The notes below the pieces were generated by a model. It made no database searches. It worked only from the letters and a program-made list of their open reading frames with translations, and was not told the DNA's origin. From Gekko japonicus (taxonomy: Eukaryota), in assembly GCF_001447785.1 (NCBI RefSeq), contig NW_015175435.1:214432-278431 (forward strand): 64,000 nucleotides of DNA, in the 5' to 3' direction. Both the position numbers and the translations under genes were made by a program. Below, in pieces: positions 2,113 through 6,692 of the stretch; the stretch's first letter is position 1, and each line of letters begins with the position of its first letter.

Positions 2113-2721
2113 TTCAAAGAGCTCTCCTTCTTGAACTATTAATACGAGATTAAGCAATATATATTTATTTATTTGCTTCTAGGTTTTTTGGTAACACCGT
2201 TGCAATGATTTGATTAATACTTTATTGTTATGGTTTTAAAACTTATTTTGTACTGTGCCTATTTTTAATTGCATAGCAGTTTTCTAAGCTTTCTTGAGTT
2301 CCTTTTGTTGGGGGGGTAAGGCAGAAATATTTAAGAAAATGAATGAATTCTGAGAGGTTCTTTATGAACATGGAGTGGGTTCAGATATGAAAGCCCCAGT
2401 CCCAGTGATCACGTGCCAAGAAAAAGAAAAGCAAATTAGATATCAATGAGAATAAAAAGTAAATGTTGTCCATATTTTAAAAACAAAACAAAAAAAACCC
2501 AGTTCATTTAAACCTTAATTACAACCACTGTAATACTCTGTCAAGTTCAGCTTCTAATGCAGATAAAGTAAGATAATGGGTTGGATCCAAACAGCCTTTT
2601 TGCTGGTCAAAAAGGAAAAAGGAGAGTCCCTTTTGACTATCAAAAAAGGTTATTATCAGGTGACAGGACTGTCGGCAGAGTGGCTATTTACTATGCAAAG
2701 AAGAGGAGCCAATTAAGAAAA

Positions 2722-3072
2722 ACGGTGGCTCAAGTGGTTAAGACGCTGAACTGCAGGCTGTGGAAGGTCAGTAGTTCAGCAGTTCGAGACCCGGGTGCCG
2801 CATGAGGGAGTGAGCTCCCATCTCTAGTTCCAGCTCCTGCCAACCTAGCAGTTCGAAAGCAAGAAATTGCAAGTAGATAAATAGGTACCACTTCGGTGGG
2901 AAGGTAACAGCGTTCCGTGCACCTTGGTGTTTAGTCATGCCGGCCACATGACCACAGAAACGTCTTCAGACAGCTCTGGCTCTTCGGCTTTGAAATGGAG
3001 ATGAGCACCACAACCCTAGAGTCGGATTCGACTGGCTTTTGAGCAAGGGAACCTTTACCTTTACTTTACCTT
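2722..3072 (+). mobile_element. Sauria SINE, near full length
   Basis: tRNA-like head (gtggctcaagtggttaag...gttcgagacc), conserved aataggtacc core, and (ACCTTT)n tail at ~3051-3072. Confidence 0.9.
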
Positions 3073-3420
3073 AAGTATTCTATTTAAGAACTAACATTAC
3101 TGCATAGAAAGAGTAAGATGCATAAGCAGTCTAAGTACATGGCTGGTGGGAAGAACTAAGAAGAAGCAGGAAGGAAACATGAGAATTGCAATCTGGGAGC
3201 AAACAAGGAAAAGACATGTAATAGAAGAAAGAGCATTGTGACTAGGGGTGTGCCCCCCATTTTTGGGGGGTTGGGGTTGGATTTAGATATATTGGACCCA
3301 ACCCCCCCCCCCCAAATTCCAATACTGGTATTTGGATTTGAGTTTTTCCCCAGAAATCCCTCCCCCCCCAGCTCCATTATACCCTATGGGACCATTATGG
3401 TCAATGAGAAATCTAACTTG

Positions 3421-5325
3421 GGGAGGGACTTCCGGTTTATGGCGACACACTAGCGGACGCATCTCCCGGACCTCCCGGGGATGTGATCTGCACACCAGCG
3501 GTTGGGGGGAGGGAGACTGGTCACCACCACCCCCGAAGCCTTGGTGAAAGGCTCCTAGCCATGGGGCTTTTGAAGGGTGGCCTCTTTGCCAGCACATTGC
3601 TGGGGAAATGAGGCACCTTTCCACCCCGGCGGTGCTGCCACTGAGTGTACATATGGAACTAGAGCTGCTGACCGGGACAAGCGTCGGAGATCGGGCGTTT
3701 GAAACATATCCTGAGTGAGGTCGTAAGACCAACAATAAACAGTGAGTAGAGTTAAAGTGAATGATGGGAATTTTAAAAGGAAAGTACCCCCTGGGAACTG
3801 AGAGAAAAGTGAGCGGGGGAGGGGCCCCTCCCACACGCGCAAATGAAAAAGGGACCTACCAAGGGGGGAGCGAAAACAAAAGCATCAAAATCTGTTTTAA
3901 GAGACTTACCAGAGCACGGTCAGGCGTATGGGCAAATTTCAGAGACTTTAGCAAGTTTTTAAAAAGTAAACAATCCATAAAGATGGCGGGGAAGAAGACG
4001 GAGGAAGATAGACTGGCAAAAGTGAAACTAGCGGGGAGCATGAGCCCCTGACCGGAAGAGGTCACTGAGTTCTCGAAACAGCTGGTGGACTCTTTGCGTC
4101 TCCTGCTGGACCAGATGACCAACATCAATCAACAGCTGACAACCTTAAATCAGAACCTTGCAACTCAGCAACTCCAACTGACTGAAACTTCAAAAAAGAC
4201 AGAGCAAACAGCTGAGAAAGTGAAGGAAATGGACGCCAAGAGCAAAAAAGTTAAGAAAAAAGTGCAAATCCTGGGGGGAAAGCAGGCTTCGGACAAATCT
4301 CAACTTTTACAACTACAAATGGAGAAAGCAAATATGGTCCTCAGGTTCCAAGGGGTTCCAGAGACAAAAGACGAGAATCTAAAGCAACTTTTGAGTGAAG
4401 CATTAGCCCCAGTTACAGATTTGAAAGCGGAATATCTTGTAAGTGAAATGGATGTGGTCTACAGGGCCTATTCCGTTTATATCAAGAAAAATAATCTGCC
4501 TGGGGAGATAGTGGTCAGATTCTCGAAGAGACACATAAGGGATTTAATCCTGAAAGCAACTACAGTAACACCCTTGAAAATGGGGGAAAATACCATCAGG
4601 ATCCTGAAAGATATCCGATTTGAAATAAGGCAAAAGAGGAAGAAGTACAATGACTTAATCCTTTTCTTACAAACAAACAGCATTGCCTACAGATGGCTGA
4701 TTCCAGAAGGCGTCATTTTCAGACTACACAATAAAAAGGAAAAGATTGACTCTGTTTTTAAAGCGTGTGAGTTCCTGAGATTGCAACTGGGAGAGACAGC
4801 CAAGGTCGCTAAAGAAGAAGATGATAGCAAATCTAGTGGCGAATTGGACTCTGTGTCTTCCGATGAAGACTCTGCTTCCGAAAAGGGGGCGGCTGCTCTC
4901 AAACGAGCATATCAATCGAGGATTAGAAAAGATAAAACAAAGTGAAGGCTGAAGGACTCTGAATTGTGCCTTAAAGCTTTTTAGTATAGATGATGCTCTT
5001 GAAGTTCTCTAAACAGTTAAATTAATGGATAAAAAGATACATAATTTAGGGTAATGGACTATGTTCAATGTAATACTAGCAATTTTAGATTAACAATTTT
5101 AGATCACAAATACCGGTAGTTGTTTTAGATTACAAGCTGTTTTTAGATTGTGATTTTAGATTACAAGATGTTGTTATGATCTCCTATTCTTGGGGTTTTA
5201 GTTATTAGTGGTTTTCTTTTCTTTCTCCTTAGATGTAGTCCCCCCCCCCTATTTTTTCATTGTAGTTTGTAGTCTATTAAAAATGCAATAAAAAATCCCC
5301 TTCGGGGGGCACAAAAAGAAAAGAA
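3421..5325 (+). mobile_element. ORF1-only L1-derived retroelement (half-L1/HAL1-like)
   Basis: L1-type 5' start GGGAGGGACTTCCGG..ATGGCG, CpG-rich 5'UTR, one ORF1, ~340 nt 3'UTR, AATAAA at ~5287, A-rich tail, and direct repeat aaatctaact at 3409-3418 and 5326-5335. No ORF2. Confidence 0.85.
3983..4945 (+). pseudogene. L1 ORF1p (coiled coil + RRM + CTD), 320 codons with one in-frame TGA at 4049-4051
   Basis: aagATGG start at 3983 is in frame with ORF 4085..4945. Heptad-rich N-region, LRFQGVPE (L1 RRM start motif), EIVVRF, IRILKDI, YRWLIPEG, then an acidic/Ser-rich and basic tail. Confidence 0.88.
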
Positions 5326-5671
5326 AAATCTAACTGGGGTTTATCCAGGGGTCTCTGCAGCTGTTTTTGAGGTAGAGGCACCAAAATTTCAGTGTAGCTT
5401 CTGGTGCCTCTTCTCAAAAGACACCCCCCACACAGGTTTTAAAAAGATTGGACTAGGGGTCCAATTCTGTGGGCCACCAAAAAAGGTGCACCTGTTCGCC
5501 ACTGTACCATGCCAGAAGGAGGTGTGGCAGAAAAAAATCAGGGATGATGGGACGACAGATGAGAACCTGTGTGGGCCAAGCACACAGCCCTTTGAAGCCA
5601 ACAGTGAGAAGGGTGGAAAAAAGGTACATAGACCCTGTGGGAGGAACTATTGACACTAGTCCCTGTCCTTC

Positions 5672-6692
5672 ATAAGAACATACGAGAAGCCAAAGTTGGA
5701 TCAGGCCAATGGCCCATCTAGTTCAACACTCTTNNNNNNNNNNNNNNNNNNNNNNNNNNNNNNNNNNNNNNNNNNNNNNNNNNNTAGGGAAAGTGTTCCA
5801 ACCCTTTTATCATTCTAGTTGCCCTTTTCTGCACTTTTCCCAATGCTATAATATCCTTTTAGAGGTGTGGTGACCAGAACTGTACACAGTACTCCAAATG
5901 AGGTCGCACCATTGATTTCTACAGGGGCATTATGATACTGGCTGATTTGTTTTCAGTTCCCTTCCTAATAATCCCCAGCATAGCGTTGGCCTTTTTTATT
6001 GCAGTCACACACTGTCTAGACATTTTCATTGAGTTATCTACTGCAACTCCAAGATCTCTCTCTTGGTCAGTCTCTGCCAGTTCGGACCCCATCAATGTCT
6101 ATTTATAGGATTTTTGGCTCCAATGTGTATCACTTTGCACTTGGCCACATTGAGCCCCATTTGCCACATGGACGCCCATTCACCCATCTTCAACAGATCC
6201 ATTTGGAGTGCCTCACAATCCTCCCTGGTTCTCAACACCCTGAAAAACTTCGTGTCATCTGCAAATTTAGCCACCTCACTGCTTACTCCCAACTCCAAAT
6301 CATTAATAAACAAGTTAAAAAGCATTGGACCGAGTACTGATCCCTGTGGTACCCCACTGCTTACCACCCTCCACTGAGAAAATTGCCCATTTATACTCAC
6401 TCTCTATTTCCTATTAATTAACCAGTTTTTGATCCACAAGAGGATTTGTCCTTTTATGTCATGACTATTGAACTTACTTAGGAGCCTTTGATGAGGAACT
6501 TTATCAAAAACTTTCTGAAAGTCAAGGTAAACAGCATCTATTGGGTCCCCCTTGTCCACATGCTTGCTCACCCCCTCTAAGAACTCTAAAAGGTTAGTGA
6601 GACAAGATCTTCCCTTACAGAACCCATGCTGAGTCTGCCTCAATAGTATTTGTTCATCAATGTTCCTACTAATTCTTTCCTTAATAAGGCTC
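5672..6692 (-). mobile_element. CR1 LINE 3' fragment (RT + 3'UTR), spans an N gap
   Basis: ORFs 6404..6763 and 6092..6400 give QHGFCKGRSCLTNLLEF, YLDFQKVFDKVPH, SGVPQGSVLGP, KFADDTK. The cataagaacata tail marks the CR1 3' end. Confidence 0.93.

Follow-up and report, generated by a model that had tools for sequence, protein, structure and literature searches.

The question raised by this locus is whether an element that carries the first open reading frame (ORF1) of a LINE-1 (L1) retrotransposon and nothing of the second (ORF2) is the remnant of a single damaged L1 or a member of an ORF1-only lineage in a reptile. The window, a 64,000-nt stretch of the Gekko japonicus genome (contig NW_015175435.1, positions 214,432 to 278,431), contains the element at 3425-5325. 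We find that it is a single copy from a multi-thousand-copy ORF1-only L1 derivative of the HAL1 (half-L1) type. HAL1 elements were reportedly described in mammals by Smit in 1999 and by Bao and Jurka in 2010. Features of the element and its insertion site are collected in Table 1.

Table 1. Features of the ORF1-only element and its insertion site, in window coordinates.
Feature	Position	Strand	Remarks
Older interspersed repeat, left part, split by insertion	3310..3408	.	right part about 5340-5500
5' target-site duplication	3409..3423	+	15 nt, one extra T; basis: empty-site copies of the host repeat with the motif once
5'UTR, CpG-enriched, start GGACTTCCGG..ATGGCG	3425..3982	+	likely internal Pol II promoter
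ORF1, 320 codons	3983..4945	+	coiled coil, RRM, CTD, acidic/basic tail; private stop at codon 23
3'UTR, T-rich, without ORF2 sequence	4946..5312	+	last ~90 nt conserved across families
Tandem insert, 62 nt, private to window copy	about 5099..5161	+	
AATAAA polyadenylation signal	5287..5292	+	
Terminal GC hairpin, directly before A tail	5296..5310	+	
A-rich tail	5313..5325	+	longer A runs here in RNA reads
3' target-site duplication	5326..5339	+	14 nt

The L1-type 5' end proposed in the initial annotation is present, with ACTTCCGG at 3428 and ATGGCG at 3439, which we take to be ETS and YY1 motifs, respectively. The 5'UTR (558 nt) is CpG-rich as described, its observed/expected CpG ratio being 0.59 against 0.34 and 0.18 in the flanks. 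The claimed 320-codon frame (3983-4945) has codon 23 as its sole internal stop and is directly followed by a short 3'UTR (367 nt), AATAAA (5287) and an A-rich tail, all where they had been placed. No ORF2 match was found within the element or within the whole window. Between AATAAA and the tail lies a CCCC-TTC-GGGG hairpin, and the 62-nt tandem insert is found in the window copy alone among 64 copies. An Rfam search of window positions 2400-6600 gave nothing real. The flanking repeat aaatctaact had been reported as 10 bp; a target-site duplication (TSD) is indeed there, with a length of 14-15 bp and a one-base indel. The element also split an older repeat, as had been claimed: of 11 other copies of that older repeat, 10 have the left- and right-flank sequences directly joined. 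This host repeat recurs at several loci as inverted arms about 1 kb apart, a structure that suggests a non-autonomous DNA transposon. Nearby, a SINE ending in ACCTTT repeats (about 2720-3065) and a reverse-strand fragment (about 5676-6600) are presumably a Sauria SINE and a CR1-like element.

The claim of a multi-copy ORF1-only L1 family is borne out by 64 distinct copies, each full-length and all sharing the same two ends (family A). Among 69 loci selected by ORF1, 61 share the family 3' end, so that the same 3'UTR does occur in other copies; 48 have the same 5' start, 45 have both ends, and 8 fall short of the 3' end, not all of them explained. The family A 5' terminus is the GGACTTCC end, and the 5' terminus of every family is L1-type and precise. 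A single copy, or other copies continuing into ORF2, had been named as the outcomes that would speak against a family; instead, none of the 118 ORF1 matches nearest the window protein runs into ORF2, the endonuclease start being sought within 700 nt. As predicted, the TSDs differ: among the 64 full-length copies, 53 are flanked by a TSD of their own, 11-19 bp long, and mismatched pairs gave 0/200. The targets mostly have T(T/C) before the TSD, and the TSD start is A-rich. Both the TSDs and the target preference are L1-type. The 64 copies give a majority sequence of 1,838 nt in which a 320-aa frame is open, in agreement with the predicted open consensus.

Family A is abundant. A 22-nt motif of its tail has 1,379 exact matches in the genome (controls, 0); at the first 30 of these loci, ORF1 lies upstream in 22, 8 are truncated or deleted, and ORF2 is present in none. 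The best 150 scored matches of the ORF1 genome search were all 80-100% identical (150/150). Whether the query was the 3' part, the 5'UTR or the ORF1 core, the search returned at least as many candidates as the best 40-150 that were scored, a depth at which a rare ORF2-bearing sister could escape.

The protein of the window copy is an L1 ORF1p. A profile of this protein and 59 relatives matches human ORF1p (E 1e-14), with which the window protein shares 17-24% identity. Its predicted model has a pLDDT of 89.9, and comparison with known structures returned 2ykp as the best match (E 1e-10), the top 10 all being human ORF1p; the model thus predicts a fold like that of human L1 ORF1p. Matching to Transposase_22, which had been suggested as a check, succeeded in part: Pfam gives no L1 family for the window protein alone, and 16 of 60 aligned proteins match. 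A phmmer search of the window protein against solved structures was weak (E 0.006), a word-indexed protein search was negative at E 1e-5, and an index-free search found 348 relatives. The best database relative is P0001; since its matches in this genome do not exceed 67%, another species probably has a relative. The best named relative is the gecko protein P0002, which groups with the ORF1p of an autonomous L1 group, clade Y, and is annotated as 'apolipoprotein A-IV-like'. From its sequence, P0002 is probably a mis-annotated retrotransposon ORF1.

Family A does not stand alone. Judging by ORF1p sequence, at least four ORF1-only families, about 45-85% identical to the window copy, make up one clade. 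Family B (ORF1p about 55-70% identical) was reached via loose RNA read ends. Family D (about 45-50%), reached via an odd tail, has a full length of about 1.9 kb with TSDs. Family E (42-52%), reached via P0001, is 1.8 kb long, with TSDs in 18 of 19 delimited copies, no ORF2 directly after ORF1 in any of 30 copies, and 468 exact genome matches to its tail motif (controls, 0). Families B, D and E are all ORF1-only, as is family A. In a tree of the ORF1 core, 17 HAL and 19 L1 sequences fall on opposite sides of a branch with 99/97 support under midpoint rooting. A quick tree of 114 selected ORF1 cores separates 37 HAL from 50 ORF2-bearing sequences (SH-aLRT 96), with all 50 outside the ORF1-only clade. 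The nearest autonomous group is clade Y, which is 37-45% identical in the ORF1 RRM-CTD and has a similar acidic-basic tail. A further 28 ORF1 matches related to family E have identical scores and open 315-aa frames (e.g., G000:C4:534921-535814); those within the listed range are without the exact family E tail motif. Their identical scores and open frames suggest a very recent subfamily; they may belong to HAL1 as a young subfamily, may be a sister group with ORF2, or may be copies collapsed in the assembly. At one locus (L451:2690-2750, in oriented coordinates), the 3' end of a family E copy has no A tail and runs instead into its own terminus in inverted form, and at another (L213) one ORF1-only copy stands directly before another.

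The ORF1 of these families bears the mark of selection. Among 63 family A copies (CpG sites masked; L036, misaligned and 30% divergent, dropped), the changes that at least six copies share number 80 nonsynonymous and 101 synonymous with no stops, a dN/dS of 0.34 that is below 1 as predicted; in the RRM-CTD part the value is 0.25. Private changes in 31 DNA-selected family A copies number 168 nonsynonymous and 40 synonymous with 6 stops (dN/dS 1.1), and the contrast between shared and private changes is highly significant (Fisher p 6e-14). Because shared and private dN/dS differ in this way, the copies decay neutrally once inserted, while ORF1 was needed in the source lineages, where it is under purifying selection. 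Among copies selected by protein, private changes give a dN/dS of 0.8 in family A and 0.47 in family E, both below 1, as ascertainment would lead one to expect. Shared changes in family E give a dN/dS of 0.21 and no shared stops. A tree-based estimate for family A, again with L036 dropped, is 0.31 on internal and 0.53 on terminal branches, the latter value being biased because copies had been selected by protein and some CpG sites remained.

The window copy itself is dead and of moderate age. It is 2.8% diverged from its own subfamily at non-CpG sites, retains 33 of 59 CpGs, and its stop is private. The initial annotation had called it young, which is partly right and overstated; the lineage, in turn, is larger and older than was proposed there.

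Between family representatives, the last 90 nt of the element agree at 59-78% of positions, whereas identity in the UTR immediately before them drops to about 50%, the level of shuffled sequence. Of the 64 family A copies, 55 end in a hairpin of -4 kcal/mol or better. In family E the stem has one extra base pair compared with A, and 27 of 30 copies selected by protein keep it whole, with 11 loop forms. At the ends of autonomous L1s a hairpin occurs in 1 of 53, the HAL and L1 end segments compared being slightly different. On these sequence comparisons, a predicted terminal hairpin is conserved in the ORF1-only clade and all but absent from the sampled autonomous L1s. According to the available sections of PMC10830416, human ORF2p engages a stem next to the poly(A), which is proposed to help Alu outcompete L1 RNA; the likeness to Alu would lie in a stem-loop adjoining the poly(A) of a trans-mobilised RNA. 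The gecko element differs from Alu in being Pol II-type and protein-coding, and its stem is only 4-5 bp. With this reservation, the hairpin may act as the Alu stem-loop does, anchoring ORF2p at the poly(A) tail, a role we regard as plausible and somewhat short of probable. Alternatively, it may serve 3' processing or RNA stability.

The same genome contains many open ORF2s of 1,247-1,272 aa. More than 80 of the listed L1 endonuclease matches have an identical score, mostly in open 1,272-aa ORF2 frames (e.g., G000:C1694:1686618), and are either collapsed repeats or the members of an L1 family that is very young. Among 20 clade-X and 49 clade-Y loci, an incomplete sample, no autonomous L1 shares the 5'UTR or the 3' end of the element. 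Two family A copies with ends 6-7 kb apart were considered as full-length parents and rejected, as they hold later insertions, a Gypsy-type element and an antisense L1. A Gypsy-type LTR element, now decayed, and a clade-Y L1 that is truncated are inserted in one family A copy (L061:2198-6649 and 1069-1735). The antisense L1 in the other (L062:2140-7968) is full-length, with an open ORF1, a 1,265-aa ORF2 and a TSD of about 16 bp. L062:2140-9311 and L063:2332-9501 are 99.65% identical over 7.2 kb and share the flank past the L1 5' end and not that past its 3' end, pointing to either an assembly duplication or an unusual transduction. Conversely, a member of the ORF1-only families is inserted within a clade-Y L1 ORF2 (L329:3948-5463). 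In three same-species RNA runs, family A is covered on both mates about equally and family E thinly; these runs give no clear read start at the family A 5' end.

Taken as a whole, the window element is very probably a dead copy of an ORF1-only (HAL1-type) clade whose sources likely transcribe themselves, have their RNA coated by ORF1p of their own making and obtain ORF2p from complete LINE-1s to insert further copies. Source copies would be transcribed by Pol II from the internal 5'UTR promoter. The selection on ORF1 suggests that ORF1p made in cis would package its own RNA. The TSDs and targets suggest that ORF2p of an autonomous L1 would bind the poly(A) tail and prime reverse transcription at the endonuclease nick, and the hairpin could help to anchor ORF2p there, like the Alu stem-loop. 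In the accessible text of PMC11260458, ORF1mneoI RNA in human cells is mobilised by ORF2p in trans and requires functional ORF1p.

The best-surviving alternative, which we still consider unlikely, traces the copies to autonomous L1 masters whose transcripts were cut short by polyadenylation after ORF1; the selection would then belong to such masters, which would be rare, extinct or unassembled. Premature polyadenylation is known for L1 (PMC5381506, in the sections available), the best-scoring candidates in our searches were all taken by short copies, and the 28 identical-score places related to family E are, where listed, without its tail motif. However, ORF1 leads into ORF2 in 0/118 copies nearest the window protein and in 0/30 family E copies, four families with ORF1 identity down to 45% all have a homologous 3' end, and every one of the 50 ORF2-bearing sequences lies outside the clade.

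It is still less likely that an ORF1-only element of this kind is mobilised by a non-L1 LINE of the CR1, L2 or RTE type that recognizes the 3' hairpin. Such recognition would fit a 3' end that is more conserved (59-78% in the last 90 nt) than the UTR upstream of it (about 50%) and is lacking from the sampled L1s. But poly(A) tails, TSDs of 11-19 bp and T/AAAA-like targets are the marks of L1 insertion, and these copies carry all of them; with an L1 query, no ORF2-like sequence was found at the 30 tail-motif loci. It is highly improbable that a single domesticated ORF1 host gene, L1TD1-like, gave rise to the copies as processed pseudogenes: purifying selection on the source and mRNA-like ends would fit equally, whereas several lineages that are 45-85% identical coexist, all of them multi-copy and divided into subfamilies of their own, and every family has the precise L1-type 5' terminus. 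A one-off deleted or prematurely ended L1 is refuted by the existence of 64 separate full-length copies that share both ends.

The HAL1-type reading places the gecko families beside several known systems. HAL1 is placed in mammals in the available parts of four papers (PMC5753468, PMC3627910, PMC5786205, PMC8535693), where it appears as L1-derived and non-autonomous, with ORF1p as sole product, the 5'UTR kept and ORF1 coding capacity maintained. The gecko elements have the HAL1-type features, namely an L1 ORF1p, family-wide absence of ORF2, poly(A) with variable TSDs and a maintained ORF1; the window element is without the ORF2 with endonuclease and reverse transcriptase that characterizes autonomous L1s. 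They differ from mammalian HAL1 in their non-mammalian host and in comprising at least four families from one origin, and they carry a conserved terminal hairpin. The ORF1p of these elements is 37-45% identical to that of local clade-Y L1 (42% in the core) and about 20% to human, in a comparison from which mammalian HAL1 sequences were absent. Because it groups with the genome's own L1s, its origin is probably independent of mammalian HAL1. HeT-A (Jockey clade) and Ag-Sponge (CR1 clade) are likewise ORF1-only non-autonomous LINEs relying on an autonomous partner, bipartite with the partner's 5' and 3' parts as outlined in the accessible text of PMC5786205; they belong to other LINE clades, and no end-sharing partner was found among the sampled gecko L1 loci.

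With lizard L1 clades, as far as they are covered in the available sections of Boissinot & Sookdeo 2016 (PMC5381506), and with local clade-Y L1 (L312-L401), the element shares the GACTTCCGG..ATGGCG 5' terminus and an ORF1p with RRM, CTD and an acidic-then-basic tail; its 5' start resembles the motif given there for lizard clade-1 L1. It differs from these L1s in having no ORF2, an ORF1 of 310-320 aa against about 385 aa, and unrelated UTRs. HAL1 is not mentioned in the accessible portions of two lizard L1 studies (PMC5381506, 10.1101/050880), and no reptile HAL1 was found in the open literature, including under HAL1 with gecko; Repbase, Dfam, subscription papers and supplementary repeat tables may name such families. 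What is new is the set of at least four ORF1-only families that group by sequence as one clade apart from the sampled autonomous L1s, with a predicted hairpin before the poly(A).

A wider scenario, which we consider possible and less likely than not, can be offered only tentatively. A lizard L1 that lost its ORF2 once, long ago, may have given rise to a self-sustaining ORF1-only clade that outlived its autonomous sister, is about as deep as clade Y, may be active, and wins ORF2p from unrelated L1s via its hairpin.

An independent, deep and abundant radiation in a reptile would make the ORF1-only design a general and long-lived strategy. Copies of this kind also mislead gene annotation, as the related L1 ORF1 filed as 'apolipoprotein A-IV-like' illustrates. 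The gecko clade offers a natural system for asking what obliges a trans-mobilised RNA to encode ORF1p itself, and by what means a passenger RNA beats the preference of L1 for its own RNA, for which the hairpin would be a small and directly mutable candidate.
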